Origin: Candidatus Syntropharchaeum sp.
GTDB lineage: Archaea > Halobacteriota > Syntropharchaeia > Syntropharchaeales > Syntropharchaeaceae
Assembly (NCBI GenBank): GCA_026134025.1
Contig: JAOQII010000005.1
Span: 594 to 64,593 of the forward strand
DNA: 64,000 nt
Direction: 5' to 3'
The translations under genes were made by a program, and so were the position numbers. Under the pieces are notes generated by a model, which was given only the letters and a program-made list of their open reading frames with translations, had not been told where the DNA came from and searched no databases. Shown here piece after piece: positions 1 to 34,867 of the stretch. Numbering within the stretch: position 1 is the first letter of the stretch; the number at the start of each line of letters is the position of its first letter.

Positions 1-917
1 TTCACGCCCTTTGTCACAAGCATATTTGCGAGATAGTTCTCGTAGTGAGCCCCTTTCTTACCGGATTTGAACGACATCGCTGCAACCGCTGGCACACCCA
101 TCACAGGATATGATAACTCTGGAATTCCTGCCTTAACGCATGCACGACGGAGGAGCGATATATTACTCAACATATCTGTTATCGATTCTGCCTCAACAAA
201 TGTACCTGGATCCAGTATCAGATCGGTAACACCTTCTCTCGCGAATGTTGCAGCGATCGATCCGAGCATCTCAAGATCATTTGGCGCAAATACTGCTACA
301 GCGGTCTCAAACTCCTTTGCGATCTCAAGTACCTTCTCCCAGTTATCCTTCGTTGCAGCATAGAGGAGTGGTTTCTTACCCTTCAATACCTTTGCACCAG
401 CCTTCAGGACCTTGGGATCGAGCGAGCAGAGAATCACAGGTAGATCTGTCGTGTCTGCAACCTTTTTGACCGCGTTCTTGAACTTGATTGGATCACCTGA
501 TACAGATCTGACAGCGATCGCATCCACATAGAACGTATCCTTGAACCTGATGAAGTTCATATTCGCGATCTCATTTATGCGTTCAACAAGCCGATCATCA
601 CTCATCGTATCCCAGACATCATAAGCGATCACGGTCTTACCAAAGAACGCAAGTTCCTCCCTGTGCATCACCTCTTCACCACCGGTCATAATCGCCTTAT
701 CACCGGAACCGAAGGTGATCTCTGCCATCGGAGGTGCTAAGAGCCTTTTTATCTTCTTGGTTGCCGCTTTCTTGAGCTTTGGACACTTATCAACCGTTGT
801 TGTACGCTCAACGAGCTTCAGTGCAAACTCAAAGCAGGAATCAGCGTCACACTCCCCACAGTCCTCCTGTGGAAGTAGCTTCATAACCTCTGCGGGTGAT
901 TTTACTCTCTCTGCCAT
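1..917 (-). CDS. cdhE: acetyl-CoA decarbonylase/synthase gamma subunit (corrinoid Fe-S protein large subunit), 5' part; the ORF runs off the window start
   Basis: The minus-strand reading frame is open from ATG at 917-915 down to position 1, with no stop in the window. The N-terminus MAERVKSPAEVMKLLPQEDCGECDADSCFEFALKLVERTTTVDKCPKL carries the Cx2Cx4Cx16C 4Fe-4S motif typical of CdhE/AcsC. The ATG lies 3 nt after the cdhD stop. Confidence 0.85.
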   Translation of the reverse strand, partial: MAERVKSPAEVMKLLPQEDCGECDADSCFEFALKLVERTTTVDKCPKLKKAATKKIKRLLAPPMAEITFGSGDKAIMTGGEEVMHREELAFFGKTVIAYDVWDTMSDDRLVERINEIANMNFIRFKDTFYVDAIAVRSVSGDPIKFKNAVKKVADTTDLPVILCSLDPKVLKAGAKVLKGKKPLLYAATKDNWEKVLEIAKEFETAVAVFAPNDLEMLGSIAATFAREGVTDLILDPGTFVEAESITDMLSNISLLRRACVKAGIPELSYPVMGVPAVAAMSFKSGKKGAHYENYLANMLVTKGV

Positions 918-920
918 CTC

Positions 921-2423: not shown

Positions 2424-2432
2424 ACGATCTCC

Positions 2433-2591
2433 TCACTTTTTCAGGACAATTTCATCGATGTGTACCTTTGCACCTTTTATCGTGATCTTTGGCGGTACAC
2501 CAGATGGCACGCCTGTAGCTCCAGCTGGTGCTGCCGCCGGGGCAGCAGCACCCTCCTCTTCTCCTTTCTTCTTCAACTTAAGCTTCACCAT
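2433..2591 (-). CDS. 52-codon micro-ORF that is a tandem copy of the cdhD N-terminus
   Basis: Read by hand because it is below the ORF-track cutoff. It translates to MVKLKLKKKGEEEGAAAPAAAPAGATGVPSGVPPKITIKGAKVHIDEIVLKK. This parallels cdhD residues 1-55 (MVKVKLKKKGEEAEAA...ESIKGVDFEFDEIILEG). It sits 4 nt after the cdhC stop and 9 nt before the cdhD start. Confidence 0.35.
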   Translation of the reverse strand: MVKLKLKKKGEEEGAAAPAAAPAGATGVPSGVPPKITIKGAKVHIDEIVLKK

Positions 2592-2595
2592 TCAT

Positions 2596-4110: not shown

Positions 4111-4129
4111 ATTCTAAACCTCCTTAATC

Positions 4130-4645
4130 TTACAGATTCTCCATTAAAATATCCATCTCTTCCTTCCACTTATAATCAGGCATGTAGGGAAACGCCCACG
4201 TCGCGTTTGGGTGTGCCCGTGCACAGAGTGCGAGCGTCTTTATATGTGGTGCGAAGTGCTTCAGTGTTGCAAGACTCTGTGATGCAAGGTAGTACTGGAT
4301 TCCCATCGTGATCACGAGATCGTGTGGCTTTCCGTTTAACCCATACTCGGGATTCTGAAGCTTGTTTACAATCTCAACCGCGCCCATCATCGATATATCA
4401 AGATCCTCAGGATATTCCTTTGATGAGCCTGCTGATGCAACCGTGGGAATGCCTTTTTTCGTCATCTCGATCGCATAGTCAATGAGACGCTTTCCCCCAA
4501 GATCCACTTCGCATGCAAGTTTCCCAACGATAAGAAGTGGATTCTTCGCTTCTTTTATCATCCTACCGGCAACCTTACCATCGATCTTACCTGAGATATG
4601 CCCACCGGCCGGACAGTCGCCCAACTTCCATATTGTTGCAGACAT
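4130..4645 (-). CDS. cdhB: acetyl-CoA decarbonylase/synthase epsilon subunit
   Basis: 171 aa, the usual CdhB size, placed between cdhA and cdhC as in archaeal cdh operons. Confidence 0.8.
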   Translation of the reverse strand: MSATIWKLGDCPAGGHISGKIDGKVAGRMIKEAKNPLLIVGKLACEVDLGGKRLIDYAIEMTKKGIPTVASAGSSKEYPEDLDISMMGAVEIVNKLQNPEYGLNGKPHDLVITMGIQYYLASQSLATLKHFAPHIKTLALCARAHPNATWAFPYMPDYKWKEEMDILMENL

Positions 4646-4661
4646 CTTATAACCTCCTTCC

Positions 4662-7079
4662 TTATACCGTATACCATTTCTTACCCTGCTTGAGGGCTTC
4701 GTATGTCCAGAGATCCTTTGGATCTAAGAGCGTCGGTGATTTGATCGGTCGTTTCGATTCCCAGCCTGCGGCATCAAGAATCTCCATGATCTCATCCTTT
4801 GCAGCATATGGTATATCAACTTCGCTCCTTACATAGTACGGTAGATCCTCAGGCATTCTACCATAGTACTTCTTGTGCATATCGATGTAGTTTGTGAGCT
4901 TGAGCTGCCGCCCCTCTGGTAAGTCGTTGTTGCGGAAGCAGAGCTTGGCGCACATTACAAGCGCCTCCTCTTTTGATTCTGCGACATAGATCATATGCTC
5001 TGGTACGGGACCGAGGTTGTGCACACTCCCGTCCTTGATGTCTCGCACATTGAACGTCTCAAGATCCTCTTTATTCCCAAGATATTGGTGCCTGTACTTT
5101 GAAGAATGAGGACCAAGCACCGCAGGAACGCCCAGCCTGTGGAATGACATACCGATCGAGAACGCCTTTTGCGAGTATGCACCCCAGACGAGTCCACATG
5201 CACCCACGTAGTTATGCACGTAATCTGCGATCTCCTGGAAGTTACCGCTCAAGATCCGCCTTGCAAAGACATTTGCCACCCGTATACCTGCATCTGAGAT
5301 ATGTGGGTTCGAGACGCATGATCCTACATTACAGAGCCCTCTTGCAACAAACGCTCCAGGAAACTTCTCATACAAAGTTTTGCCCTCAGCATCTTTGTAC
5401 CATCCGACTGACATCGTACCGCATCCAGATACTGCAACAATGAAGTTTCGCATGAGAAGCTCTTCTGCCATCTCATAGACCTCTCGATGCTCGTTCGGGT
5501 AGTTGGAACACCCTATAAGTCCGATAGCACCAGGGATTGTTCCAAGCCCCCACGTATCTGCGACCTTCCTGATCTCAACATCCGTGATCGGCCCTCTTCC
5601 AACCCTGCAGACCGACTTGTGTTCTCTGAACGCTTTCTCAGAAGCCTTGCTGATGAGGCTTATAATCGGAATAAACCGTTTACACTCCTGCTCGCACTTT
5701 CCACACCCAACACACGAGTCATCGAGTGCTGCAAGCTTTGAGAAATCACCCTCTATCGCTGCGTACATCGCATCAGAGATCGGGAGTGAATTTCCACATG
5801 CCTTTGTACACGCACCACAGTGCCAGCACTGCTTTGCATAAGCGATGATCTCATCCTCAGATGGCGTGATCTTGAATTTCTGCCTCTTTGGCGCGACGCC
5901 AAGTGCAACCCTGACGGCAACCTCTCCTGCCATCTCACGGTTTAGGATCAGGACACCTGTCTCTTTGCCTGAGACAAGATCATTCACGACCTCATCGATG
6001 TCATCGCCAGATCTATCAGGCAGTCCATGCATCGCTTTCGTGTTTGTTGCGATAAACGGTGCCTTCACGCTACGCGCAATCTCATGCATATCAACCCTTA
6101 TACATTGCTCATCCACGACAACAACATCTGCAAAACCAGATCGTACATACCTTATCTGCATCGACTGGGGTCCAACGATCTTCGCCTTCTGGGTATATCG
6201 GGTCAGGTCGATCGCCGTACAGCAGATTCCGCCGATCTCAACCGCATCTTCAAGGTCATGCTCTCGCATATAATCGACCATCGCGATCGATGGGAGGACA
6301 TTATGCCCTATACAGAGAATCGTTGGCTTTGTCTGATCGAGCACTCCCATACCAATCTCAACAAGCGGTGCGTTTGGATCTCCTCTCGGCATATCAAGGG
6401 CGCAGATCTGTGCGATATCCGCGGTAGCCATTGAAACCGAGTCGAGCATCCCGGCATGGTACGCCTTTGACTCATAATCGAGATAGCTTCCCTCCTGACC
6501 CATGTGGATAGCTGCAACAAGCCCGGGAACCTGGCTCTCGACATACTCGATCACCTCAACAAGATCGCTGAGCTTCTTTGGTGCGATACCTGTCACAACC
6601 CTGATGATCGGGGATTCAACCGGGGTCATCTCACCAAAGTCAATCGGAACATCCGGTCCTTTCAGCTCTATAAGCTCCTCCACAAGTTCTTTTGCATGGC
6701 TAAGGTGTGTGTTCATCCCTGTAAACGCTGTTAAAAGTGACCATCTACCCTGCTGTGTCTTCATATCGATCCCACATGCACCCCGCTTGTTTCCTGTGAG
6801 ATCACATTTACCCAGCGTACACAGACAGCAGATATCACATGTCGGTGAGTACATCGGTGGATACCGCTTCAAGAGCTTCATATCCCAGTCTCTAAGGTCT
6901 TCCATGTTCGGCTTTGGCGTTGGACCCATCGGCTCTATCATTTCATCGATCTCCGAAGGCTTTGTGACCTTCCCTATCGATAACTCGAGTCCATCGAGCC
7001 TGAAAGAGCCTGTCCTAAACTTCTTGAGTTTTGCATTCAGGACTTCTTCATCATTTGCAACCAAATAAACCTCCTCCAT
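4662..7079 (-). CDS. cdhA: acetyl-CoA decarbonylase/synthase alpha subunit (Ni-CODH catalytic subunit)
   Basis: 805 aa with many Cys clusters (CDICCLC, CxxCxxC ferredoxin-like inserts) and the archaeal CdhA size. It is the first gene of a cdhABCDE string. Confidence 0.9.
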   Translation of the reverse strand: MEEVYLVANDEEVLNAKLKKFRTGSFRLDGLELSIGKVTKPSEIDEMIEPMGPTPKPNMEDLRDWDMKLLKRYPPMYSPTCDICCLCTLGKCDLTGNKRGACGIDMKTQQGRWSLLTAFTGMNTHLSHAKELVEELIELKGPDVPIDFGEMTPVESPIIRVVTGIAPKKLSDLVEVIEYVESQVPGLVAAIHMGQEGSYLDYESKAYHAGMLDSVSMATADIAQICALDMPRGDPNAPLVEIGMGVLDQTKPTILCIGHNVLPSIAMVDYMREHDLEDAVEIGGICCTAIDLTRYTQKAKIVGPQSMQIRYVRSGFADVVVVDEQCIRVDMHEIARSVKAPFIATNTKAMHGLPDRSGDDIDEVVNDLVSGKETGVLILNREMAGEVAVRVALGVAPKRQKFKITPSEDEIIAYAKQCWHCGACTKACGNSLPISDAMYAAIEGDFSKLAALDDSCVGCGKCEQECKRFIPIISLISKASEKAFREHKSVCRVGRGPITDVEIRKVADTWGLGTIPGAIGLIGCSNYPNEHREVYEMAEELLMRNFIVAVSGCGTMSVGWYKDAEGKTLYEKFPGAFVARGLCNVGSCVSNPHISDAGIRVANVFARRILSGNFQEIADYVHNYVGACGLVWGAYSQKAFSIGMSFHRLGVPAVLGPHSSKYRHQYLGNKEDLETFNVRDIKDGSVHNLGPVPEHMIYVAESKEEALVMCAKLCFRNNDLPEGRQLKLTNYIDMHKKYYGRMPEDLPYYVRSEVDIPYAAKDEIMEILDAAGWESKRPIKSPTLLDPKDLWTYEALKQGKKWYTV

Positions 7080-13329: not shown

Positions 13330-14410
13330 TCCCATATAGGGGTGGTGAATTAATTGTCAGGTGATAAATCCAAGTGTGTTATCTGAAATTTTTTTCGCCT
13401 CATATCTGCTCCTCCAATAAACTTTCCATCATCAAAACAAAGTTACCAAAGATGATATCATCGCATTTCCTGTAGAAAGCCTGCTCTGGAGTCTCAAGCT
13501 CATCAAAATTGAGGCTCATATGTGGCCTTATCCTGTTATACCAGTCAACAAACTCTTGAATGCTATCAAAATCATTCCTGTGTCTGTTATAGGTATCAAA
13601 CCACTTCTCCATTTTTCCATTGCTCTGTGGATGATTGTACTTACACAGTATCTGCTTTATTCCCCTCTGTTTGCAATATTCCTCGAATGAGTGTTTTGCC
13701 TCTCCTTTCTTATCTCTCCTGTTGGCATAGAATTGTGAACCATGATCAGTAATTACTTCTCTGATGGGAGCTATGTGCAGGTATTTCCTGTATGCTTCAT
13801 CCAACAGCTTGATTGAGTTCTCAGCGGTGGCATTATCAAATTCACCTGCAGCAGGTATCATTCTGGAGGCATCATCCAGAACAGCACAAACCCATCTTCC
13901 ATATTTTTCGTTAAAGAACCAGTCCATATGCACCGCGCTGAGACTGTGTGATCTCTCATATCTGACCCACTTCTTCCTTCCCTTCTTTCCTGGTTCCTCC
14001 TTTGCCATATTCTCCTCCAGTAATATAGCGTGGATACGATTATTATCTGCTCTTATCTTCCTTCTTTTGCGAAGGTACTTTCCTATTACTGTTGCACCCC
14101 CTCCGATCTTCTTCTTTGCTGAAATTACCTCTTTTCTGAGTTTATCGTTTGGTTTGGGTTTTGGACCTGGTTTTCCCGGTGAAGGTATCTTACCAGTTTC
14201 TCTGTATTCTTTTGCAATTTGCTGAACTCTTCTCCTGCTGATGTTGAATTGATCAGCAACCAATTGGGTGTTCATTCCATAGTTTATTACACGAAGGGCG
14301 ATGCGCCGATAGTCATCCCTGGTAAGCTTCATGTGATGCTCTCTGAGCGGGGCACTTAAACCTTGACGAAATTTATTGCAGATAATACAGATGTCTAAGT
14401 TCAGTGGGAT
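13330..14410. mobile_element. insertion sequence (single rve/DDE transposase gene) inserted just 3' of tRNA-Leu
   Basis: An AT-rich block is bounded by imperfect inverted repeats (TGTTATCTGAAATTT near 13380 versus the reverse complement TATTATCTGCAATAAATTT near 14375). It encloses the transposase ORF. Boundaries are approximate. Confidence 0.5.
13400..14332 (-). CDS. DDE transposase with integrase-core (rve) domain, IS481/IS3-like
   Basis: N-terminal HTH, then HMDWFF...ITDHGSQF...YNHPQSNGKMEKW integrase catalytic core with a DDE arrangement. 310 aa. Confidence 0.8.
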   Translation of the reverse strand: MKLTRDDYRRIALRVINYGMNTQLVADQFNISRRRVQQIAKEYRETGKIPSPGKPGPKPKPNDKLRKEVISAKKKIGGGATVIGKYLRKRRKIRADNNRIHAILLEENMAKEEPGKKGRKKWVRYERSHSLSAVHMDWFFNEKYGRWVCAVLDDASRMIPAAGEFDNATAENSIKLLDEAYRKYLHIAPIREVITDHGSQFYANRRDKKGEAKHSFEEYCKQRGIKQILCKYNHPQSNGKMEKWFDTYNRHRNDFDSIQEFVDWYNRIRPHMSLNFDELETPEQAFYRKCDDIIFGNFVLMMESLLEEQI

Positions 14411-14456: not shown

Positions 14457-14825
14457 GTGGAAGATAATTTCAACAACAAAAACATCACACGAGACTTAAC
14501 CATGCACCTCAGGAAAATCGCCCAGGAATTTGCAGATCAGGCCAAGCGTAAGTACCCTGATAAGATAGAGAAGACCATCCTGTTCGGGTCTGTTGCGCGA
14601 GATGAGATGACGCCAGAGTCAGATATTGATCTTCTGGTGATCTGCACCTCTACCGGTGGCGATCGATTCAAAGTTAGGAGGATGATCATGGATGATGTCG
14701 TATCGTTTCTATTAAAATACGGCGTATATATCTCAGTTAAAACATTGAGTGAAGAAGAATCGATAGAACTGAAAGATACCGGGTTTTTGCGGCAGATAAA
14801 TACGGAAGGTGTTGCCCTTGCATGA
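14457..14825 (+). CDS. minimal nucleotidyltransferase (MNT family, toxin-antitoxin type)
   Basis: GSVARDEMTPESDIDLLVI is the Pol-beta-type NTase GS-x-D-x-D motif. 122 aa. Confidence 0.75.
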   Translation: MEDNFNNKNITRDLTMHLRKIAQEFADQAKRKYPDKIEKTILFGSVARDEMTPESDIDLLVICTSTGGDRFKVRRMIMDDVVSFLLKYGVYISVKTLSEEESIELKDTGFLRQINTEGVALA

Positions 14826-18018: not shown

Positions 18019-18597
18019 ATGATTGCACGCATCAGGGGCATGATCGAGGATATTGAGGATGCATCGGTTGTTGTTGATGTTGGAGGGGTTGGCTACCGTG
18101 TTTTTGTCCCGGGTAACATCATCGAGTCTTTGAGTGGTCTTGAAGGTGAGGTCAAACTTCTCACGCATCTTCAGGTAAAGGATGATGAGATGATTCTTTA
18201 CGGATTTTTAAGCCGTGATGAGCTTGAGATCTTTCAGGCGCTTCTCGGGGTATCAGGGGTTGGAGCAAAGATCGCACTTGGTATTCTCTCATCTCTCAAG
18301 CCTGACGAACTTCGGTCAGCGGTTGTTGGAGGCGATATCGAGAAGCTCACATCGATCAAAGGGCTTGGGAAAAAGACTGCGTCCAGGATCATTCTTGAGC
18401 TTGGTGAGAGGCTTGTTATGCGTGTCACCCTTCCAAAAGTTTTTGAGGATGCGATTGAAGGGCTTATTGCGCTTGGATATGGGAGAGGGGACTCAGAAAA
18501 GGTGGTTAAGAAAATTCTTGATGAGAGGGGTGTGAACATCACAGTGGAAGATATTATAAAAGATGGATTGAGAATTTTAACATCTAAAAGCCGATGA
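18019..18597 (+). CDS. ruvA: Holliday-junction DNA helicase subunit RuvA (bacterial-type)
   Basis: Full-length collinear match to RuvA: MIARIRG...VGGVGYRVFVP (domain I), two HhH motifs (GVSGVGAKIALGIL, IKGLGKKTASRII) and domain III (EGLIALGYGRGDSEKVVKKI). Confidence 0.75.
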   Translation: MIARIRGMIEDIEDASVVVDVGGVGYRVFVPGNIIESLSGLEGEVKLLTHLQVKDDEMILYGFLSRDELEIFQALLGVSGVGAKIALGILSSLKPDELRSAVVGGDIEKLTSIKGLGKKTASRIILELGERLVMRVTLPKVFEDAIEGLIALGYGRGDSEKVVKKILDERGVNITVEDIIKDGLRILTSKSR

Positions 18598-24457: not shown

Positions 24458-25125
24458 AGATACGAAGGCCTTATGTCGTGATGATCTCAGAGGTCACGGT
24501 GGATGGTAAGCTCACGCTCAAGCGCGGGATGTCAAGCAAGATCATCATGTCCGTGATGGATGAGGAGGCTGATATTTACCTCCACCGTGAGCGTGCAAGA
24601 TCAGATGCGATCATGGTTGGTTGCAACACAATAAAGATCGATAACTCATATCTCACGGTTAGGTATATCGAGGGAGCAAACCCGATAAGGGTGATACCCT
24701 GTAGTAATGCCGATCTACCGCTGGATTCAAATGTCCTGAAAGGGGATGCGCCGACGATAATAGCGGTCTCAGAAGCTGCAAAAGAGGAGAACGTTGAGCA
24801 TATCCGATCAATGGGAGTTGAAGTCTGGATTTGCGGTGAGAGAAAAGTTGATCTCGTGCTACTTCTTGAAAAACTCTTCGAGCGAGGTGTTAAAAGACTC
24901 ATGCTTGAGGGTGGTCCCACACTTGCGTGGGAGATGATCAATAAGAGGCTCATCGATGAGGTGAAGCTTATTCACATGCCTTTTATTGTTGGAGGCTGGG
25001 ATACACCAACGCTCTTTGGGGGCGAAGGTGTTGGTGAGCTAAATAAGGTAATCCATGCAGAGCTTGAGCGGTATTTTCTATGCGGGAAGCATCTCATAAC
25101 AGAGTACAGGGTGGTATATCAATGA
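24454..25125 (+). CDS. 2,5-diamino-6-ribosylamino-4(3H)-pyrimidinone 5'-phosphate reductase (RibD C-terminal domain, DHFR-like)
   Basis: Archaeal riboflavin or F420 pathway reductase family (RibD_C fold; VDGKLTLK...MLEGGPTL). Confidence 0.65.
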   Translation: MKIRRPYVVMISEVTVDGKLTLKRGMSSKIIMSVMDEEADIYLHRERARSDAIMVGCNTIKIDNSYLTVRYIEGANPIRVIPCSNADLPLDSNVLKGDAPTIIAVSEAAKEENVEHIRSMGVEVWICGERKVDLVLLLEKLFERGVKRLMLEGGPTLAWEMINKRLIDEVKLIHMPFIVGGWDTPTLFGGEGVGELNKVIHAELERYFLCGKHLITEYRVVYQ

Positions 25126-25718
25126 GTATAGAAGCAGGATTGAGAAGTGAAGTGGACAGAAAAGGTGATACAAGCTTGAAGATCGCATGGGGAATCACGG
25201 GAAGTGGAGATAGGATAGAAGAGACCGTCGAGTTTATGGAACAGATAAAGGAGAGGTACAATCTTGATATAGTTCCCTATGCATCGAAGGAGGGGGAGGT
25301 AGTCTTAAAATTCTACAAGCTTCTAAATAGAGTTAAGGAAGGTTTTCCAGGATATAAAGTTGAGCGAAGTTCAAACGCCCCATTTCTTGCAGCAAAACTC
25401 CAGATGGGTGAGTATGACCTCTTTATAATCTGTCCTGCGACCGCAAATACCGTTGCAAAGATCGCACACGGGATCGCAGACTCCCTCCTATCAAACTCTG
25501 CTGCTCAGGCGATGAAAGTGGGAGTTCCTGTCTACATTTATCCGGTTGATCAGAAGGTGGGAGAGATGACAACGATCCTGCCTGACGGGCGGGAGATGAA
25601 GCTCAAGATACGGGAAGAAGATGTTAAAAATACCGATGCACTCCGCGATATGGAAGGGATGACGGTATTAAATACGATCGATGAGATAGAAGGAGTTGTT
25701 TCAGAATGGAAGAAGTGA
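25122..25718 (+). CDS. afpA: archaeoflavoprotein AfpA (flavoprotein, CoaC-like fold)
   Basis: KIAWGITGSGDRI ... CPATANTVAKIA motifs of the Flavoprotein family. Start set at the ATG at 25122 inside the longer tracked ORF. Confidence 0.65.
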   Translation: MSIEAGLRSEVDRKGDTSLKIAWGITGSGDRIEETVEFMEQIKERYNLDIVPYASKEGEVVLKFYKLLNRVKEGFPGYKVERSSNAPFLAAKLQMGEYDLFIICPATANTVAKIAHGIADSLLSNSAAQAMKVGVPVYIYPVDQKVGEMTTILPDGREMKLKIREEDVKNTDALRDMEGMTVLNTIDEIEGVVSEWKK

Positions 25719-26596
25719 AGATGGAAACGGCAGAGGTTGAGGGAAGAGCTGTTCAGTGGGATCCGACACAGCTTCGGAAGATACAATCGCACCCATGTTT
25801 CAGCAAAGAGGCGATGCACCTTTTTGGAAGGATACATCTACCTGTCGCACCAAAATGTAATATCCAGTGTAATTACTGTGTTCGTAAGTTTGATTGTGTG
25901 AATGAGTCGCGACCAGGTGTTACAAGCACAATCTTAACGCCAGAGGAGGCTGTTCATCGAGTAAGAGAGGTTATCAAGGAGCACCATTACATAAAGGTCG
26001 TTGGGGTTGCAGGGCCTGGTGAGCCGCTCTTCAATGAGGAGACCTTTGAGACGTTCAGGCTCGTTAAGGATGAGTTTCCACAGCTTCTCAGGTGCATCAG
26101 CACAAACGGACTTCTTCTTCCAGAACGAATCGAGGATCTTGATGAGATCGGTATAAGCACGGTCACAGTCACGATGAACGCCGTAGATCCCACGATCGGT
26201 GAAAAAATATACACATTCGTTGAGTATGAAGGAAAAAGATACAGAGGAAGGGAGGCAGCAGAGATCCTCCTTGAAAACCAGCTTAAGGGGATAGAAGAGG
26301 CTTTGAAGCGGAAGATGATCGTCAAGGTGAATACTGTTTTAATACCGACTGTAAATGAAGATCACATCGTAGAAGTTGCAAAGAAGGTCGGTGAGATGGG
26401 TGTATACCTGCAGAATGTCCTTCCCCTGATCCCACAGTATAAGTTCAAGGATATCACACCGCCAGGCCCTGCTGATAAGAAGCGGATTCAGGATGCCTGT
26501 GAGCCTTATGTCAGGCAGATGACGCATTGCAGGCAGTGTCGGGCTGATGCGATCGGAAAACTCGGAAAGGATCTTAAGGGATGCTGGGAGAAGTAG
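25706..26596 (+). CDS. NifB-family radical SAM protein (stand-alone radical SAM domain)
   Basis: HPCFS...AHxxFGRIHLPVAPKCNIQCNYCVRKFDCVNESRPGV is the NifB N-terminal signature with the CxxxCxxC cluster. 296 aa, the minimal archaeal NifB size. Confidence 0.75.
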   Translation: MEEVKMETAEVEGRAVQWDPTQLRKIQSHPCFSKEAMHLFGRIHLPVAPKCNIQCNYCVRKFDCVNESRPGVTSTILTPEEAVHRVREVIKEHHYIKVVGVAGPGEPLFNEETFETFRLVKDEFPQLLRCISTNGLLLPERIEDLDEIGISTVTVTMNAVDPTIGEKIYTFVEYEGKRYRGREAAEILLENQLKGIEEALKRKMIVKVNTVLIPTVNEDHIVEVAKKVGEMGVYLQNVLPLIPQYKFKDITPPGPADKKRIQDACEPYVRQMTHCRQCRADAIGKLGKDLKGCWEK

Positions 26597-26674
26597 AAAA
26601 CTGAGATCCCTTCTCAAAAGAAAGTATTCTCAATACCGAAAACTTTATGGAGAGAAAGGTTACATTCAATCATT

Positions 26675-28009
26675 ATGAATGATGCGGATCAGGTCACGAT
26701 ATACAACGATAGAGGAGATCCTCTTGCAGAAGATATACCGATTGATGCACTGAGCCCATACCGGAATCAGGCTATCAGAGCGATCCTCCATACATTGAAG
26801 CGTACCGCTATAATCGATTTAAACAAGCTTGAGACCTCACTGAGAAATGGCAGTGTGGGAAATACAATGGCTATCGGTGGTGAATGCAGGATACCGGGCA
26901 GAGAAGTTGATCTACCGATCAAGGAACATGCTGATTCTATCGCGGATCGGGTGCTTGGGATGCTCAGGGTCTCGGATGATGATGACGCAATGGTTGAGCG
27001 GCTCGATTCCTTACTCATCGTCCAGATACCGTCTCTCGTTGTTGCAACTGGAACAGGATACACGCAGGCATATTTGCTTCCAGCAACCGCGCTTGCCCAT
27101 GCGATCATCGATGAGTTCGATCTCGGGATATTCGATGGTGTGGATATGATCAAATCCGCGATCATGGGCAGGTACCCACAGACCATTGAACCATCAGGTG
27201 GGGCAGTCTCGATGCTCATCTCGTTTCCTTCGAGTGTCGAGGGGGCAGGGGTTGGGTACCGATCACTCTCTGTCAATACGATCGTTGCTTTAACCCACAG
27301 AAGGACCTTTGATGCGGTTGCCTTAAGTTCGGTACTTGAGCATGCAGCAGCGTTTGAGTCGGGTGCCGCGATGGGTCCCTACAGGCGTTATCATCTCATG
27401 GGCATGGCTTATCAGGGATTCAACGCAGGGAATATGGTCTATGAACTTGTGCGAGATCATGGAAAGGGTACAGTTGTTGATATCATCGAGGATGTTATCG
27501 CTCGTTCGATCGAAGATCGTGTGATCAAACTTGAGAAAGAGCTCCCCTCAGGGTATGGTATGTACTCGGCATCTGATGCATCGATGTGGAACGCTTATGC
27601 ATCTGCAGGCCTTCTTGCTACAGCGATCCAGAACGCAGGTGCATCAAGATCTGCTCAGGGTACGCCGTCTGCGATGCAGTTCTACGCCGATCTTCTTGCG
27701 ATGGCAACATCCCTACCTGAAGTTGATTTTGGAAAGGTGATCGGGACCGCGATGGTCTTCAACTGGCTAACGCATAATTCTTATGGGGGTGGTGAGGTCG
27801 GGATCTTCTCTGGTGAGCATGTGGTAACCAAAGGCTCGAAGGGCTTTATAATGCCGTGTGCCGCTGCTTCGATGTGTCTCGATGCTGGTACGATGATGTA
27901 TATGCCAGAGGTCACATCAAAGAATATGTTCAAGCTTACAGAGGTTCTTCCAAGCCTACAGGATCCATTTTCACGGATTGCAGAGGCTGCAAAGGAGATT
28001 GGGGGTTAA
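26675..28009 (+). CDS. mcrB: methyl/alkyl-coenzyme M reductase beta subunit
   Basis: 444 aa, collinear with McrB (…LSPYRNQAIRAIL…, …MGPYRRYHLMGMAYQGFNAGN…, …KGFIMPCAAASMCLDAGT…). Confidence 0.85.
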   Translation: MNDADQVTIYNDRGDPLAEDIPIDALSPYRNQAIRAILHTLKRTAIIDLNKLETSLRNGSVGNTMAIGGECRIPGREVDLPIKEHADSIADRVLGMLRVSDDDDAMVERLDSLLIVQIPSLVVATGTGYTQAYLLPATALAHAIIDEFDLGIFDGVDMIKSAIMGRYPQTIEPSGGAVSMLISFPSSVEGAGVGYRSLSVNTIVALTHRRTFDAVALSSVLEHAAAFESGAAMGPYRRYHLMGMAYQGFNAGNMVYELVRDHGKGTVVDIIEDVIARSIEDRVIKLEKELPSGYGMYSASDASMWNAYASAGLLATAIQNAGASRSAQGTPSAMQFYADLLAMATSLPEVDFGKVIGTAMVFNWLTHNSYGGGEVGIFSGEHVVTKGSKGFIMPCAAASMCLDAGTMMYMPEVTSKNMFKLTEVLPSLQDPFSRIAEAAKEIGG

Positions 28010-28012
28010 AGC

Positions 28013-29677
28013 ATGCCAAAAAAATCGATCGAGATCATAAAGGAGACGTTCAAGGAGGATGATGCAACCCGCGAACGTACATCATTCTATGAGTTTGGAG
28101 GGTGGAGGCAATCACGGCGTAAGCAGGAGTATGTCAAGCTTGCAAAGGATCTAATCGAAGAGCGAGGACTCACCGGTTATCAGGGAGATCGAGAGGATAT
28201 GGGCGTGCCACTGGGCCAGCGGTTCATCGAGCCATACTACATCTCGGGAACAGATGTTTTATGTGATGGTGAGGATCTCCACCAGGTCAACAACGCGGCG
28301 ATCCAGCAGATGGGTGATGATATCAAGCGGACCGCGATCTCAGGGCTTGATATGACACACAGGATGCTTGAAGTCAGGATCGGAGCTACAGTGACGCCAG
28401 AGACGATAAACAGGTATCTTGAGGTTGCAAATCACACGATCGTCGGTGGTGCAGTTGCACAGGAGCACATGGCAGAGATCAACCCTGCGATGACCCGGGA
28501 TGGATCTGTGAAGATCATGAGCGGGAATGAGGAACTCATGTCGCACATCGATAAACAGTACATCATCGATATAAACAGGGAATATCCAGCCAATCAGGCA
28601 GAAGCGTTGAAAGAGGGGATCGGAAAATCGATATATCAGGTTGTTAGAGTCCCGACTGTTGCTGTTAGAAACGCAGATGGCGGGACAACACATAGATGGG
28701 CTGCAAACCAGTGCACGCTCGGCTTTATAACCGCGTACGCGCTGGGTGGCGGGTCAATCCTTGCTGATTTCTCATTAACCTCAAAGCACATGCAGTATGT
28801 CACGCTCGGAACACCCACGTGGCCCAGACGGGGTCCAAGAGGTAAGAATGAACCTGGAGGCATTCCCTATGGGTATGTTGGGGACTTCTGCCAGGCCGAT
28901 GCTGCAGGTTCTGATGAGATCACATATTTCTGTGAGTCGATGGCACTCTCAAACTTCCTCTACCTCAATCTCTGGGTCAATGGGTATGTGATCGGTGGGA
29001 TAGGTGGTGTGCACGCCGGGGCTGTTTTATTCACGAACAACGTACTTGATGAGCTTGCAGGACACATCACAGACTGGATCGTGGATCGCTATGGTGGACT
29101 GGCAAAGGCCAAGCCGTCATTTGATGTGATAAGAGACGTCTGTCATGAGGCATGCTTCCATCTCCTGGAGGAATATAATCGGTATCCACTCCTTTTAGAG
29201 CACCACTGGGGAGGAGCGATACGGATGTTCATCCTTTCCACATTGGGTGGGATGGCTCCTTCGTTTGCAACAGGGCACTCGCTCGCCGGGATGATCGGCT
29301 ACCACTATACAGGTGGGTATCTCATGAAGGAAGCATGGGGCAGGGGGTCGTTCGGCTCACAGGACTCGGTGGATCACATGAACCTCGCCTACGCAGCTTC
29401 AATGGTACCTGATGAGGGACTTCTTCCCGAGTTGAGAGGACCAAACTTCTCAAGTGACTCGACAAATGCGATTGTCCAGTGCACAAGCCCATCGTACGCC
29501 GTGGCAGCCCACGCAGCTCGAAAGGATGCATGGTGTTTGAGTCCAGTGGTTAAAGTGGCATTCGCAGACTCAAAGCTACCATTTAATTTCAAAGAGGTTC
29601 GCAAGGAGATCGCACGTGGCACCCAGCATGAGTTTATGCCAGAGGGTGATCGCGACCCGATAAAACCAGGGAGGTGA
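28013..29677 (+). CDS. mcrA: methyl/alkyl-coenzyme M reductase alpha subunit, divergent
   Basis: 554 aa, collinear with McrA throughout (FYEFGGWRQSRRKQEY…, VAQEHM retaining the axial Gln, GKNEPGGIPYGY, PELRGPNF, VKVAFAD). The canonical FYGYDLQDQCG segment is replaced by SFGSQDSVDHM. Confidence 0.85.
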   Translation: MPKKSIEIIKETFKEDDATRERTSFYEFGGWRQSRRKQEYVKLAKDLIEERGLTGYQGDREDMGVPLGQRFIEPYYISGTDVLCDGEDLHQVNNAAIQQMGDDIKRTAISGLDMTHRMLEVRIGATVTPETINRYLEVANHTIVGGAVAQEHMAEINPAMTRDGSVKIMSGNEELMSHIDKQYIIDINREYPANQAEALKEGIGKSIYQVVRVPTVAVRNADGGTTHRWAANQCTLGFITAYALGGGSILADFSLTSKHMQYVTLGTPTWPRRGPRGKNEPGGIPYGYVGDFCQADAAGSDEITYFCESMALSNFLYLNLWVNGYVIGGIGGVHAGAVLFTNNVLDELAGHITDWIVDRYGGLAKAKPSFDVIRDVCHEACFHLLEEYNRYPLLLEHHWGGAIRMFILSTLGGMAPSFATGHSLAGMIGYHYTGGYLMKEAWGRGSFGSQDSVDHMNLAYAASMVPDEGLLPELRGPNFSSDSTNAIVQCTSPSYAVAAHAARKDAWCLSPVVKVAFADSKLPFNFKEVRKEIARGTQHEFMPEGDRDPIKPGR

Positions 29678-29681
29678 AAAG

Positions 29682-30437
29682 ATGATCTATCCAGGTGATG
29701 ATAGAATCGCAAAAAGGCGCAGGGCGATACTCAATAAAGATACAGCATTAAAGCAGCTGCGGGAGGTTGCAGACGAGGATCTCGTCATGATTCTTGGGCA
29801 CAGAAACCCAGGGGAGCGGTACTCGTCCGTACATCCCCCACTTGATGAGCTTAAAGAAGCGGAAGATCCAATAAGAGACCTTATAGAAGCAACTCCTGGT
29901 GCGAAAGGTGGTGACAGGATAAGATACGTCCAGTTCACAGACTCGGTCTACCACTCTCCAATAACCCCGATCTTCAGGGGCAGGATGTATCACATACGCT
30001 ACCGTGGGGCAGATACAGTAGCATACTCTGGAAGGGAGCTGATGGAAGCGCGGGAGCGGGACCTTGAGAAATATACGAAGGAGCTTCTTGAGACCGAAAT
30101 TTTTGACCCTGCAAGAACAGCGATTCGGGGTATCACGGTACACGGTTCCGCGATGCGACTCGATGAAGATGGGCTTATGTTTGATGCGAGGAGACGGTAC
30201 AGGTATGATAAAGACGAGAACACCGTGATCTACTCTAAAAATCAGATGGCGATCCCGATCGATAGATCGATCTCACTCGGCTCACCCAGAGATGAAGAGG
30301 ATCTCAAGGCTGATTCGATAATCTATGGACTTGATACCATAGGTTACAGGGATGCAGAGGAACTCTGGGAGGTTACAGGAAAGCTCATGGAGGATAACGT
30401 GAAGGGCGGGTTGAACCCGAAGTGGGTGGAGAGGTGA
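29682..30437 (+). CDS. mcrG: methyl/alkyl-coenzyme M reductase gamma subunit
   Basis: 251 aa, McrG-like (ILGHRNPGERYSSVHPPLDE…RYVQFTDS…YRGADT…RERDLEK…LLETEIFDPAR…HGSAMRLDEDGLMFD). Confidence 0.85.
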   Translation: MIYPGDDRIAKRRRAILNKDTALKQLREVADEDLVMILGHRNPGERYSSVHPPLDELKEAEDPIRDLIEATPGAKGGDRIRYVQFTDSVYHSPITPIFRGRMYHIRYRGADTVAYSGRELMEARERDLEKYTKELLETEIFDPARTAIRGITVHGSAMRLDEDGLMFDARRRYRYDKDENTVIYSKNQMAIPIDRSISLGSPRDEEDLKADSIIYGLDTIGYRDAEELWEVTGKLMEDNVKGGLNPKWVER

Positions 30438-30440
30438 GGT

Positions 30441-31553
30441 CTACCCTCGAATTTCATACTCCCTCTCTCCTATCCCAAGCTTCGCTGCAGCCTCTATCTG
30501 GACATCTGCGTTGGTCCAGGGGAAAATCTTTGAGAACTTTTCACCCACAACGCCTTCTGCCATCGATTCTGGAAGGGGCAAAGCAGCTGTTACAAGATCG
30601 AGCGATGCTTTATCGATCGCGAGAATATCTCTGGATGCAAGAATTCCAATATCAGGCACGATCGGATTGTCTGAGTATGGGTGGCAGTCACAGTGTGGCG
30701 TTATATCAAGGAGGAAATTAATAAATGTGAATTTGTCATGCCCCAGCAGATCCATAACAGCTTTTGCACACTCGACAAACCTCGTATCAAGTTCAGCCGG
30801 GCTTGTCCACTCAACCGTGATCGCATCCTCCTCACATATCCCAACGCAACCTCCGCACCTGATGCACGTATCTGTATCGATCACGTAATTAGTAATCGCA
30901 TCACACGGACAGATCTTCTCGCACGCTCCACAACGGTTACACCGTGCTTCATCGATCTTCGGATAGTCTTTTATATGAATATCGTATTTCGAGGGCTTTG
31001 CCGTGCATCCAACACCGACGTTCTTGAGTGAACCGCCGAACGACCCGCTCTGATGCCCTTTGAAGTGCGTGAGGCATATCACCCGGTCACATTCTGCGAT
31101 CGCCCTTGCAACATATACCTCCTTGAGCTGGGTACCATCAAGATCGACCCTGACAAAATCAAGACCTTTCAATCCATCGGCGATGATTATCGGAGCCTGT
31201 AACGTCTGGTGGGTGTATCCATTCTCCTCTGCTACCTTAATCCTTCCTGTTGCAAAGTTTGTATCCCGACGCATCCCGAGACCGCACGTCTCTGTGAAAA
31301 AAGGCTCTCCACCCCGCGCCTTAACCATCCCTGCAACCTTTCGCATAAATACGGATCTTAGTTGCTTTGTCACACCCCGCTCACCGAAGTGAACCTTCAG
31401 TGCAACGATGTCCCCTCGCACGATATCATCGAGGAGTCCACTTCGCTCAAGAAGTTTCTCAAGTCTCGTAACCGCGCTCAAATCTGGCTGATACCACTTA
31501 CTGACATCTTTGACAGGCGCTCTCGTATCTGTGAAGTAGACGGTTGAGGCCAT
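30441..31553 (-). CDS. DUF362-domain protein with an inserted double [4Fe-4S] ferredoxin module
   Basis: Two CxxCxxCxxxCP motifs (CNRCGACEKICPC, CIRCGGCVGICE) inside a DUF362 scaffold. Start is 7 nt after the porD stop on the same strand. Confidence 0.55.
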   Translation of the reverse strand: MASTVYFTDTRAPVKDVSKWYQPDLSAVTRLEKLLERSGLLDDIVRGDIVALKVHFGERGVTKQLRSVFMRKVAGMVKARGGEPFFTETCGLGMRRDTNFATGRIKVAEENGYTHQTLQAPIIIADGLKGLDFVRVDLDGTQLKEVYVARAIAECDRVICLTHFKGHQSGSFGGSLKNVGVGCTAKPSKYDIHIKDYPKIDEARCNRCGACEKICPCDAITNYVIDTDTCIRCGGCVGICEEDAITVEWTSPAELDTRFVECAKAVMDLLGHDKFTFINFLLDITPHCDCHPYSDNPIVPDIGILASRDILAIDKASLDLVTAALPLPESMAEGVVGEKFSKIFPWTNADVQIEAAAKLGIGEREYEIRG

Positions 31554-31559
31554 CCTCCT

Positions 31560-31802
31560 CTACTCCTCTTTCACCATGCGTATCGCCTTTGTTGGGCACT
31601 CGTTCGCACAGATTCCGCATCCTTTGCAGTATTCATAATCAACCTCAAACTCAGGACTGATCGTACCCTCAGGGCATAGAAGGTAGCAGTTGTAGCAGTG
31701 TATGCAGGACTCTCGATTACGAACAGGCATAAAGACCCGCCAGTCGCCAGTCCTTCCTGATGCGCCTATGGTTGGATATGCGATTGACATTTTCACCTTC
31801 AT
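31560..31802 (-). CDS. porD: 2-oxoacid:ferredoxin oxidoreductase delta subunit (2x[4Fe-4S])
   Basis: 80 aa with CIHCYNCYLLCP and CKGCGICANECP. Confidence 0.75.
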   Translation of the reverse strand: MKVKMSIAYPTIGASGRTGDWRVFMPVRNRESCIHCYNCYLLCPEGTISPEFEVDYEYCKGCGICANECPTKAIRMVKEE

Positions 31803-32425
31803 ATCGCTCCCTCTGCCTCAAGTTCCTCATACGCTTCTTCTTCAAGTTCCTCAGATGCTGCCAGCGTGTACTGGAGATTCTGAACCCTGACAACCCGCTC
31901 ATAAGCGATCTCTGCAGCCTTGATATTCCTCGGGTCTGAATAGATCTTCTTTATCGCACGCTTTAGCGAAGTCTGTTTTACAAGCCCGAGCTTTGCAAGC
32001 GCTCCAAGCATGGGTGTGTTCAGGACAGGGGTTCCTGCAACTGTAAGCCCGAGATCGAGTGAGATGCTTGTCACATCGACCGCATAGAGACGATAATCCT
32101 CAAGTGCTGGCGGACATTCACCTCTGTTATTTATCAGAAATATCGTATTCTCACTCGCACCCGCTGTCACATCTGCGATCTCAACAAGCACCGGATCGAT
32201 GATAACAATATAATCAGGCGATCTTAAATTGCTGTATCTTTTCACCTCAGTATCAGATATGCGTGTTCCAGAAATTATCGCAGCTCCACGTCGCTCCGCA
32301 CCGTATACAGCGAGCGATGTACTGTACTTTCCATCAAAGAACGCAGCCATCCCGAGAATCTTGGCAGCCGTGGCACCGCCCTGACCACCCCTTGAATGAA
32401 ATCTTACCTCGGTTATATCCCCCAC
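31799..32425 (-). CDS. porG: 2-oxoacid:ferredoxin oxidoreductase gamma subunit
   Basis: FHSRGGQGGATAAKILGMAA is the OFOR gamma signature. Confidence 0.75.
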   Translation of the reverse strand: MGDITEVRFHSRGGQGGATAAKILGMAAFFDGKYSTSLAVYGAERRGAAIISGTRISDTEVKRYSNLRSPDYIVIIDPVLVEIADVTAGASENTIFLINNRGECPPALEDYRLYAVDVTSISLDLGLTVAGTPVLNTPMLGALAKLGLVKQTSLKRAIKKIYSDPRNIKAAEIAYERVVRVQNLQYTLAASEELEEEAYEELEAEGAI

Positions 32426-33585
32426 CAGAACTCACCTCCTTCGATCTCAACCATCTTTGTGATGTCCTCAGCCGTAATATCCTGACCGCCCAGACCCGCT
32501 ATCACATTAACAATTTCTCTCATCACCCCTGCATCATATAGACGCGCCTTGATCTCCTGAGCTATGATTCCACCACAGCCTCCAGAGTAGTCACGATCGA
32601 TTATAACAACCTTTTCGGCTTTTGATCCTGAGATTATATCAACGATCTCATCCGGGAATGGTCTGAACTGCCTGAGCTGGAGCAGACCTGCCTTAACGCC
32701 CCTGAATCGCAGCATATCGATCGCATCCTCCGCCTCCTTTGCAAGCGTCCCCATCGCAACGATAAGAACCTCTGCGTTATCTGTCCTGTACTCCATCACA
32801 GGATGATATTCCCGCCCGAAGAGTCTCAAGAATTCAGCTTCAGCATCTTTTATAACATCCTTTACCAGATCCATGGAGACCTTTCGATTATGCTGTATCT
32901 TGTAGTTATCAGTGGGTACAACAAGCGTACCGAGTGTGTGGGGTGCGTCAAAGTTGAGGGCGTGAGGAATCCTGATCTCATCAAGAAACTCCTCCTGATA
33001 GCGTTTTTCATCGATCAGGTGAAGCGGTTGATTTATATGTGTCAGGAGAAAACCATCGAGGCAGACCATCGCAGGCAACATCACATCCTCATTCTCTGCA
33101 GCTCTGAAAGCGATCAGGATTGTATCATACACCTCCTGAACAGTGGAAGTATAGAACTGAAGCCATCCCGAATCTCTCATCGATAATGAGTCGAGGTGAT
33201 CAGCCCAGATGTTCCAGCCTGATCCGAGTGCACGGTTTGCATTTGCCATAACGATTGGAAGTCTCCCGATCGCTGCCCAGTGAACCATCTCGGCCATATA
33301 GAGCAATCCATGGCTTGATGTGGCTGTGAATGTCCTTGCTCCACAGGAAGACGCTCCGATACACGCGGCAAGTGCTGAATGCTCACTCTCAACCGCTATA
33401 TACTGGCAGTCGTGCCTCTCTTCGCCGATAAAGCGTGATAACTTCTCAACAATCTCTGTCTGTGGTGTTATAGGGTATGCAGCAATCACAGAAGGTTTTG
33501 CAACAAGAACCGCCCTTGCAGCAGCTTCACATCCTGTAACAAAAAGTCCTCTATCTTTCTCTAATTCTGTCTGCGTCGTCATCAC
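32413..33585 (-). CDS. porA: 2-oxoacid:ferredoxin oxidoreductase alpha subunit
   Basis: GCEAAARAVL...AAYPITPQTEIVE N-terminal domain of POR/KOR/VOR alpha. 390 aa. Confidence 0.8.
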   Translation of the reverse strand: MMTTQTELEKDRGLFVTGCEAAARAVLVAKPSVIAAYPITPQTEIVEKLSRFIGEERHDCQYIAVESEHSALAACIGASSCGARTFTATSSHGLLYMAEMVHWAAIGRLPIVMANANRALGSGWNIWADHLDSLSMRDSGWLQFYTSTVQEVYDTILIAFRAAENEDVMLPAMVCLDGFLLTHINQPLHLIDEKRYQEEFLDEIRIPHALNFDAPHTLGTLVVPTDNYKIQHNRKVSMDLVKDVIKDAEAEFLRLFGREYHPVMEYRTDNAEVLIVAMGTLAKEAEDAIDMLRFRGVKAGLLQLRQFRPFPDEIVDIISGSKAEKVVIIDRDYSGGCGGIIAQEIKARLYDAGVMREIVNVIAGLGGQDITAEDITKMVEIEGGEFWWGI

Positions 33586-34490
33586 AGTCCAAACGCCTCC
33601 CTGTAGTAGGCTATATTTGCATCGACCTTTCGTTGTGTGATCTCAATATCCTCCTCACTCATCCTTGAAAATCTTCCCTGAACTCTGAGATAATCCTTAA
33701 CAGGTATCGGATTCTTCATCGCGTCGAGACTCGGCTTGCTCATCGAGAAACTCCTATTTTCAGTCTCATACAGGAAGAATGAACAGCTTCCTACAGCAAG
33801 CTTTCCAATTTCTATCGCTTTCTCGGTTGAGATTCTCCAACCAGGCGGGCAGGGCGTCAGGACATGCAGGAACTTGGGTCCCTCAATTGAGAGGGCACGC
33901 TTTACTTTTCTCTGAAGATCCATCGGGTAGGAAGGACAGGCTGTTGCCATGTAAGGGATATTATGAGCGCTGATTATGGCTGCAATATCTTTCTTATCCT
34001 CTTTCTTGCCGAAAGGTGTCGTCGTTGTCGATGCTCCGAACGGTGTTGAGCCCGATCGCTGCATACCTGTGTTTCCATACGCCTCGTTGTCGTAGCAGAC
34101 ATAGAGAAAGTCAGTATTACGCTCGATAGCCCCTGATAGTGCCTGAACTCCAATATCAACCGTTCCACCATCACCAGCAATTGCTATCACATTTATCCCA
34201 CGTTCTCGTACTGCTGCCCGAACACCACTTGCCATCGCAGCTGTACAGGCAAAAGCGGTATCAAGTGTGGGTAACGCCATACACGTATTCGGGGAGATCC
34301 CCTCACAGACCACGGCACAACATGCAGAGACGAGCACGAATGTATCAGGACCTGCAGCCTTCAAGATGTGACGTATGGCGAGCATCGCAGTGCAACCAGG
34401 GCAGGATGAATTTCCTTTGAGCAGATATTCCTCCCTGTTCACCGTATTTGTACCAAAGCCATAACGATCTTCTACTTCGCGAGCTATCAT
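33582..34490 (-). CDS. porB: 2-oxoacid:ferredoxin oxidoreductase beta subunit (TPP-binding)
   Basis: CPGCTAML...GDGGTVDIG TPP-binding motif. Start moved to the ATG at 34490 (MIAREV), because the upstream extension is encoded by an A/T homopolymer promoter-like tract. Confidence 0.75.
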   Translation of the reverse strand: MIAREVEDRYGFGTNTVNREEYLLKGNSSCPGCTAMLAIRHILKAAGPDTFVLVSACCAVVCEGISPNTCMALPTLDTAFACTAAMASGVRAAVRERGINVIAIAGDGGTVDIGVQALSGAIERNTDFLYVCYDNEAYGNTGMQRSGSTPFGASTTTTPFGKKEDKKDIAAIISAHNIPYMATACPSYPMDLQRKVKRALSIEGPKFLHVLTPCPPGWRISTEKAIEIGKLAVGSCSFFLYETENRSFSMSKPSLDAMKNPIPVKDYLRVQGRFSRMSEEDIEITQRKVDANIAYYREAFGL

Positions 34491-34867
34491 GATAAACACC
34501 AAATCCGTTATAGATTTTTTTAAAAAAAAGGATCTGGTCAAGCCTCAACATACCAATGCTAAGAGAAGCAAGTGCAAAATATCACCGTTCCTCGTCCTTC
34601 TCCCAGTTAGAGACTTCATTCTTGACCACTTCAACCTCAAATGAGACAATATATAAAAGTTGTGGTAACTGCATCGCATTCAGAATGAATGCAAAAGTCT
34701 CATATAATAAGAATCTCAGGGCTATCCATTCTATAGTACTGTAAACAAAGAAAGACACTCTCCAGGGACTAAATCTGTGAATATGTAGGTGAGTGCCTGG
34801 TTTGATAAAGGAAAGGTCTTAAGATCGTAGCAATGCATTAAGAAGTATCGATATTTTGAATAAAGAC

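Follow-up and report, generated by a model that had tools for sequence, protein, structure and literature searches.

The locus described here raises the question of which reaction is carried out by a reductase whose three subunits resemble those of methyl-coenzyme M reductase (MCR) and whose genes lie in the order beta-alpha-gamma (B-A-G). It is located on a 64-kb stretch (positions 594 to 64,593) of contig JAOQII010000005.1 in a Candidatus (Ca.) Syntrophoarchaeum metagenome-assembled genome (MAG); this whole stretch is called the window below. Enzymes of this family form an alpha2-beta2-gamma2 complex that uses Ni(I)-F430 to convert an alkane and CoM-S-S-CoB into alkyl-S-CoM and HS-CoB. We consider it very probable, judging from sequence, that the three genes are an acrBAG operon encoding an alpha2-beta2-gamma2, Ni-F430-dependent alkyl-coenzyme M reductase (ACR) of an undescribed Ca. 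Syntrophoarchaeum species, orthologous to the sets of Ca. S. butanivorans OFV66176.1 and Ca. S. caldarius OFV68281.1, and that the enzyme most likely converts an alkane to alkyl-S-CoM. Through ACRs, methanogenesis-type chemistry reaches multicarbon alkanes, and these enzymes have a central part in the anaerobic turnover of hydrocarbons at seeps and vents.

Identity and orthology of the three genes

All three open reading frames (ORFs) are intact, full length and co-directional on the forward strand. The first, acrB (mcrB-like; 26675-28009), encodes a beta subunit of 444 aa with the Pfam domains MCR_beta_N (E-value: 3e-47) and MCR_beta (E-value: 8e-90); the second, acrA (mcrA-like; 28013-29677), encodes the catalytic alpha subunit of 554 aa with MCR_alpha_N (E-value: 2e-101) and MCR_alpha (E-value: 1e-24); and the third, acrG (mcrG-like; 29682-30437), encodes a gamma subunit of 251 aa with MCR_gamma (E-value: 1e-95). 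This three-subunit assignment is far beyond chance. Gaps of 3 nt (...GGGGGTTAA-AGC-ATG) and 4 nt (...GGAGGTGA-AAAG-ATG) separate acrB from acrA and acrA from acrG, respectively. An earlier reading of this DNA, made from the letters alone (the sequence-only reading), had placed packed homologues of McrB, McrA and McrG, in this order and with gaps of 3-4 nt, at 26675-30437; the ORFs match these limits exactly and their Pfam domains agree. It had also described McrA as markedly diverged and the gamma subunit as roughly half identical to canonical enzymes, and this too holds: relative to canonical enzymes of solved structure, alpha is ~42% identical, beta ~45% (45% to M. wolfeii MCR II beta, with beta-Tyr367 kept) and gamma ~55% (55% to M. 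kandleri McrG). When alpha and beta were compared with the NCBIfam equivalogs for canonical methyl-coenzyme M reductase (TIGR03256 and TIGR03257), both fell below the cut-offs (563.8 bits vs 767.75 and 444.5 bits vs 516.25, respectively), whereas gamma exceeded that of TIGR03259 (307.6 bits vs 172.1).

Among 1.84 billion representatives clustered at 50% identity, all of which were searched, the McrA family is condensed to roughly a dozen full-length entries. A scan of genome contigs with the alpha protein alone gave only three loci, none of them in the genome of the window. GenBank MCW7076082.1, encoded on a contig of 66,761 nt in a MAG of Ca. Syntrophoarchaeum sp., matches the alpha subunit at 100% identity. 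Next comes the cluster that holds S. butanivorans OFV66176.1, at 86% identity, with 81% and 79% identity for the beta and gamma subunits of the OFV66176.1 set, followed at 76% by the cluster with S. caldarius OFV68281.1. Identity drops to 59% for S. butanivorans OFV65745.1 and for Ca. Alkanophaga MDF2957193.1 and MDF2955404.1, to 56% for S. caldarius OFV67100.1, to 51-52% for Archaeoglobi including JdFR-42 (Ca. Polytropus marinifundus) and to 41-45% for canonical McrA. In a neighbor-joining (NJ) tree (100 bootstraps), alpha paired with OFV66176.1 at 99 and the S. caldarius cluster joined this pair at 100. The Syntrophoarchaeia/Alkanophaga B-A-G group received 82% support and the larger group that also takes in the Archaeoglobi and a 'Halobacteriota' clade received 87%, while all methanogen sequences and those of the type found in anaerobic methanotrophic archaea (ANME) were placed elsewhere. 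Phylogenetic placement, which the sequence-only reading had named as a check, thus sets alpha among the ACRs and outside the canonical MCRs. The same MAG contains a second acrA (MCW7076051.1) that clusters with S. butanivorans OFV65760.1, and it is therefore a multi-ACR genome, like those of its described relatives.

S. butanivorans, S. caldarius and the species of the window have all kept the orthologue group. Nei-Gojobori ratios of nonsynonymous to synonymous substitution (dN/dS) relative to the S. butanivorans orthologue are 0.094 for acrB, 0.064 for acrA and 0.080 for acrG, at dS values of 1.25-1.58. These low ratios indicate strong purifying selection and thus that the genes are not relics; the group is confirmed as both retained and constrained across Syntrophoarchaeum species.

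Active site and alternative readings of function

An alignment of 55 sequences was numbered on M. marburgensis MCR I (PDB 3POT), and this numbering reproduces the literature positions Q147, H257, R271, F330, Y333, Q400, G445, D450 and C452. The alpha subunit keeps the Ni-F430 ligand Gln147, together with His257, Arg271, D450 and N481. Seven pocket or modification positions are substituted (F330G, Y333A, Q400I, Y444G, G445S, Y446Q and C452M), so that the window reads G-V-H-A at 330-333, I400, F-G-S-Q-D and M452. Each of the 17 canonical sequences keeps F330-T-Q-Y333, G445 and D450, and most of them keep Q400 (16/17), Y444 (15/17), Y446 (14/17) and C452 (13/17). The same pocket residues are replaced in the window and in all members of the ACR clade, with Q147, H257 and R271 kept, and this residue comparison is sharper than the NJ tree. 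At position 400, Ile, His or Glu is found in ACRs (Lemaire and Wagner, PMC9118554). Length differences from M. marburgensis are limited to indels of one residue and, after position 59, an insertion of three residues that the canonical sequences lack. One residue is deleted at M. marburgensis position 245, within the loop 239-246. For some homologues from Syntrophoarchaeum, Methanoliparia and Helarchaeota, Lemaire and Wagner (PMC9118554) report the same deletion, which they link to an open cleft in AlphaFold models of ACRs for C3 and larger alkanes.

A separate observation concerns P0027 (MHC1635267.1), a McrA from outside the window whose MAG bears the label Ca. Methanospirareceae, a family of ANME-1. 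The protein is of the ACR type (V-T-A-F, I400 and W-G-G-Q-E) and falls with the group of S. butanivorans OFV65760.1, although loss of ACRs has been described for ANME-1. This sequence could be the product of misbinning or a real exception.

The enzyme would carry out the first step of anaerobic non-methane alkane oxidation (alkane + CoM-S-S-CoB -> alkyl-S-CoM + HS-CoB). By analogy with the genus, the expected substrates are propane or butane: Syntrophoarchaeum cultures form propyl- and butyl-CoM and are inhibited by 2-bromoethanesulfonate (PMC9118554). The nickel ligand and the coenzyme-binding framework are retained, while the bulky residues that close the methane pocket (alpha Phe330, Tyr333, Tyr444, Tyr446 and Gln400) have given way to Gly, Ala, Ile and Gln. 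Together with the loop shortened by one residue, these substitutions should enlarge or open the chamber for C3 and larger substrates. The suggestion of the sequence-only reading that the operon encodes an alkane-activating or otherwise non-methane CoM reductase is upheld by orthology to the S. butanivorans set, by the position of alpha in the tree and by an active site of the ACR type.

Several points weigh against this assignment. First, the deep nodes of the NJ tree have only 20-29% support, and the tree does not demonstrate monophyly of all ACRs. Second, Ser occupies the thioglycine position 445 and Gly is shifted to 444, an arrangement common to the window, the S. butanivorans orthologue and Alkanophaga. 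Third, enlargement of the pocket is predicted from residue changes rather than from a model of the holo-hexamer. Fourth, the most expressed ACR of S. butanivorans is a different paralogue, OFV67021.1 (PMC9118554). Fifth, in Ca. Alkanophaga only an acrA separated from acrB and acrG is highly expressed (PMC10322722). The Alkanophaga member of the B-A-G sub-lineage sits in an intact B-A-G operon and is thus presumably one of the two low-expressed copies. The paralogue in the window may not be the main alkane activator.

The expression data bear on a possible, though on balance unlikely, alternative in which the operon encodes an ACR isoenzyme with a specialized or conditional role instead of the main butane or propane activator. 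Such an enzyme might act on another chain length or on a branched or substituted substrate, be condition-dependent in the manner of MCR I and II in Methanobacteriales, or work preferentially in reverse, in the alkane-forming direction. Each Syntrophoarchaeum genome has four paralogues, and the dominant one, OFV67021.1, belongs to another orthologue group, according to PMC9118554; at least one more acrA (MCW7076051.1) is present in this MAG. The Alkanophaga copy is, we presume, one of the two weakly expressed ones, whose functions are stated to be unknown (PMC10322722), Boyd et al. (PMC6474303) suggest that multiple copies serve different conditions or chain lengths, and reversibility of the butane pathway was shown in earlier work. 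On the other side, according to the summary of Laso-Perez et al. in PMC9118554, most of the four sets are abundant as transcripts and proteins, so the set in the window may contribute to butane or propane activation, and no sequence feature points to a specific alternative substrate. The operon touches here on a standing question, namely the role of each of the multiple ACR paralogues.

A rather improbable extension of this idea is that the entire B-A-G sub-lineage is a functionally distinct reductase, with a substrate or direction other than those of the main C3-C4 or long-chain ACRs (another hydrocarbon class, or alkane formation). With its Gly displaced by one position (F-G-S-Q-D), such an enzyme could lack the near-universal thioglycine.

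Two further readings are very unlikely. The operon might be a decaying, non-functional paralogue, given a multi-copy family, an Alkanophaga copy of the same sub-lineage that we take to be weakly expressed and the loss of the thioglycine site Gly445; however, the ORFs are intact, the junction signals are conserved, dN/dS is 0.06-0.09 over a dS of about 1.3-1.6 relative to the S. butanivorans orthologue, and the group has been retained in all three species. It might equally be an ethane-specific ethyl-CoM reductase of the Ethanoperedens/Argoarchaeum type, as it belongs to the ACR clade and S. caldarius has an ethane-type-like copy (OFV68676.1) with a Met axial ligand. This reading was rejected on the strength of the 554 aa alpha subunit, which has none of the ethane-type insertions, of the Gln axial ligand and of the scores of the ethyl-CoM reductase structure 7B1S, which ranks last among the PDB matches for alpha and gamma and next to last for beta. 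In addition, the order is B-A-G rather than the order beta-gamma-alpha (B-G-A) of the OFV68676.1 set, and ethane is not oxidized by Syntrophoarchaeum cultures (PMC9118554).

The least tenable reading, a canonical methane-forming or methane-oxidizing MCR with an unusual gene order, would draw on the conserved Gln147, His257 and Arg271 and on a best solved-structure score with a methanogen MCR II (503 bits, vs 323 bits for ethyl-CoM reductase), but it was rejected in view of the alpha and beta scores below the equivalog cut-offs, the replacement of seven positions conserved in most or all of the 17 canonical sequences and the 99-100% clustering with the ACRs of butane oxidizers, and it is at odds with a genus reported to lack canonical Mcr (PMC10322722) and methane metabolism, methane being neither oxidized nor formed (PMC10322722, PMC9118554).

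Gene order, expression signals and neighboring genes

Pfam and NCBIfam scans were run on 57 of the 64 ORF calls of at least 80 aa, among them every call of at least 120 aa save three subunit genes of a 2-oxoacid:ferredoxin oxidoreductase (OFOR), which were identified via Pfam hits on a 99%-identical contig of the same species. Within the 64-kb window, these scans found no MCR_C, MCR_D, A2-type ABC ATPase, Mmp10-like or YcaO/TfuA protein, in agreement with the sequence-only reading, which had listed mcrC, mcrD, atwA, mmp10 and ycaO/tfuA as missing. The sole radical S-adenosylmethionine (SAM) gene among the scanned ORFs is a NifB equivalog. It is very unlikely that mcrC and mcrD lie in a standard arrangement in the ~2.7 kb of contig beyond the window, because seven related loci (L001, L004, L006, L008, L011, L012 and L013) are bare B-A-G operons. 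McrC, McrD and the factors for F430 synthesis and activation would come from other parts of the genome; in Syntrophoarchaeum genomes, McrC and McrD homologues are reported at other sites (PMC6474303; PMC9894754), and ACR and ANME operons without mcrC and mcrD are documented (PMC9081873).

Every locus examined from the sub-lineage has the order B-A-G with gaps of 1-5 nt. These include the S. butanivorans OFV66176.1 and OFV65745.1 sets, the S. caldarius OFV67100.1 set, Ca. Alkanophaga, two Archaeoglobi and two metagenome contigs of the same species as the window. In a sister 'Halobacteriota' clade, B-A lacks a neighboring gamma gene. The order B-G-A (L016-L019) occurs in a Helarchaeota ACR, S. 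caldarius OFV68676.1, the second Polytropus copy and a third S. butanivorans paralogue, OFV65760.1. This distribution indicates that B-A-G is a derived trait that tracks one ACR sub-lineage; it is neither a general hallmark of ACRs nor peculiar to this window. A 'divergent type mcrBAG' has already been published for Syntrophoarchaeum and Polytropus (Liu et al. 2020, PMC7380581). The proposal in the sequence-only reading of a still uncharacterized MCR clade is therefore not sustained, as the lineage, the B-A-G order and the absence of mcrC and mcrD from the operon have all been described (PMC7380581, PMC9081873, PMC9118554).

Other genes were seen beside some of the loci used for comparison. 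A NikR-like regulator (L019, 2958-3386) is located upstream of the S. butanivorans B-G-A paralogue. The second Polytropus copy (L018, 8883-11854; B-G-A) is followed by mcrC and the methanogenesis-marker genes DUF2113, DUF2102, DUF2112 and BcrAD. In the 'Halobacteriota' ACR clade, divergent marker genes are found upstream of B-A (L015, 2238-4975).

The three genes of the window are probably carried on one transcript from a promoter ~30 nt upstream of acrB and translationally coupled. A putative archaeal promoter, aaaCTTTATggaga, with elements resembling a B recognition element (BRE) and a TATA box, lies on the forward strand at 26640-26653, centered ~29 nt 5' of the acrB ATG, and the motif ccgaaaNctttaNgg is found at an equal distance upstream in the S. 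butanivorans orthologue. The 50 nt before the acrB ATG are conserved in the same-species contigs and contain ccgaaaaCTTTATggagagaaagg; the S. butanivorans orthologue has it at the same spacing, and it may act as a BRE/TATA element giving a near-leaderless transcript. A Shine-Dalgarno-like GGGGGT (28001-28006, forward strand), 7 nt ahead of the acrA ATG, is embedded in the 3' end of acrB. Four related loci have equivalent G-rich motifs at the B/A junction, and GGGGGT is consistent with translational coupling across this junction. A putative Shine-Dalgarno sequence, GGAGGTGA (29670-29677, forward strand), overlaps the stop codon of acrA and is separated by 4 nt from the acrG ATG; the S. butanivorans orthologue and paralogue both keep it at their A/G junctions. 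As a compact three-gene cassette with a putative short promoter region, the operon could serve for heterologous expression, although its practical value is modest.

The remainder of the window is an ordinary archaeal chromosome. It begins with cdhABCDE, genes for acetyl-CoA decarbonylase/synthase (ACDS; 3-7079, reverse strand). Between these and the acr genes are CetZ and thiamine pyrophosphate (TPP) enzyme genes, an rve-family integrase (an insertion sequence transposase; 13400-14332, reverse strand) adjoined by a small MntA-like nucleotidyltransferase ORF (14457-14825), and a 192 aa ORF with RuvA_N, HHH_5 and RuvA_C domains (18019-18597). The last encodes a Holliday-junction protein of bacterial type, and its presence on an archaeal contig may reflect horizontal acquisition. 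Genes for an H+-translocating pyrophosphatase (H+-PPase), a DNA ligase and a riboflavin reductase also lie upstream of the acr genes. The ligase, 2 kb upstream of the operon, is 79% identical to the ligases of S. butanivorans and S. caldarius, indicating that both sides of the operon come from the genus Ca. Syntrophoarchaeum; the host is assigned to this genus by the identities of McrA and the ligase. Downstream, a gene with DUF362 and 2x[4Fe-4S] ferredoxin domains, followed by the OFOR genes (30441-34541), is convergent with acrG, its stop codon lying 3 nt past that of acrG. The four-subunit OFOR itself (delta-gamma-alpha-beta) occupies 31560-34541 on the reverse strand. Housekeeping genes separate it from an AMP-binding enzyme (acyl-CoA synthetase; 62821-63999), which is cut by the window end.

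Directly upstream of acrB are genes for the NifB equivalog and the archaeoflavoprotein AfpA (25080-26596). The NifB equivalog (296 aa) scores 377.8 bits against TIGR01290 (cut-off 343.65), has no NifX-like domain and ends 78 nt before acrB. Synteny breaks at 26624/26625, 50 nt upstream of the acrB start: two independently assembled same-species metagenome contigs (L013 and L014) are 99% identical to the window from 26625 to ~40050, a region that covers the operon, DUF362, the OFOR and beyond, while upstream of this point they are unrelated to the window and identical to each other. The breakpoint reflects a rearrangement between strains or else a join made during assembly of the window's contig. 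The NifB-type radical SAM protein and AfpA were considered as partners in ACR or F430 maturation and rejected, as neither the same-species contigs nor any of the orthologous or paralogous loci shows this adjacency; they are probably incidental neighbors. A conserved alkane-pathway cluster of ACDS, OFOR and acyl-CoA synthetase with the reductase was not supported: only the DUF362/OFOR block is syntenic, and only in same-species contigs. The sequence-only reading had linked these three enzymes to the reductase as downstream steps. Their presence was confirmed, but not their grouping into a functional cluster, as housekeeping genes intervene and the flanks of the orthologue differ. The three enzymes agree with the known pathway of the organism, and their position is no evidence for the function of the reductase.

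Comparison with known systems

Canonical MCR (M. marburgensis MCR I and II; mcrBDCGA and mrtBDGA) shares with the operon of the window its fold, subunit set, Gln147, His257, Arg271, Asp450, Asn481 and beta-Tyr367. It differs in gene order, in the presence of mcrC and mcrD in the operon, in the seven alpha residues and in the equivalog scores of alpha and beta. The ethyl-CoM reductase of Ca. Ethanoperedens thermophilum (PDB 7B1S) is the only structurally solved ACR. It belongs to the same superfamily, with the same presumed chemistry and an F430 alpha2-beta2-gamma2 architecture, but by score it is the most distant solved relative. Its subunits are larger (595, 467 and 266 aa, vs 554, 444 and 251 aa) and carry insertions, absent from the window, that form a gas tunnel; it contains dimethyl-F430 (PMC9118554), and its axial ligand is Met where the window keeps Gln147.

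Much closer are the mcrBAG operons of Ca. Syntrophoarchaeum, Ca. Alkanophaga and Ca. Polytropus marinifundus (PMC7380581, PMC6474303, PMC10322722). Like the window, these have the order B-A-G with no mcrC or mcrD in the operon, an alpha subunit at 51-60% identity, the one-residue deletion at 245 and a small-residue pocket. They represent paralogous or more distant lineages, and the Archaeoglobi copies are thought to have been acquired horizontally.

The orthologue of the window set is the OFV66176.1 set of S. butanivorans (contig LYOR01000003.1), one of four divergent MCR sets in that organism (Laso-Perez et al. 2016). The two agree in the lengths of alpha and beta (554 and 444 aa), the order B-A-G, the 3-nt B/A gap, the indel pattern and a similar upstream TATA-like motif. 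Their active sites are alike save at positions 332 (His or Asn, with His in the window) and 452 (Met or Leu, with Met in the window). They differ in species and in flanking genes: PmbA/TldD upstream and PNPOx downstream in S. butanivorans, none of which is kept in the window, and NifB-like/AfpA and DUF362/OFOR in the window. Based on this comparison, the operon is a further species-level orthologue in an already described ACR paralogue group of the mcrBAG type and not a new kind of reductase.

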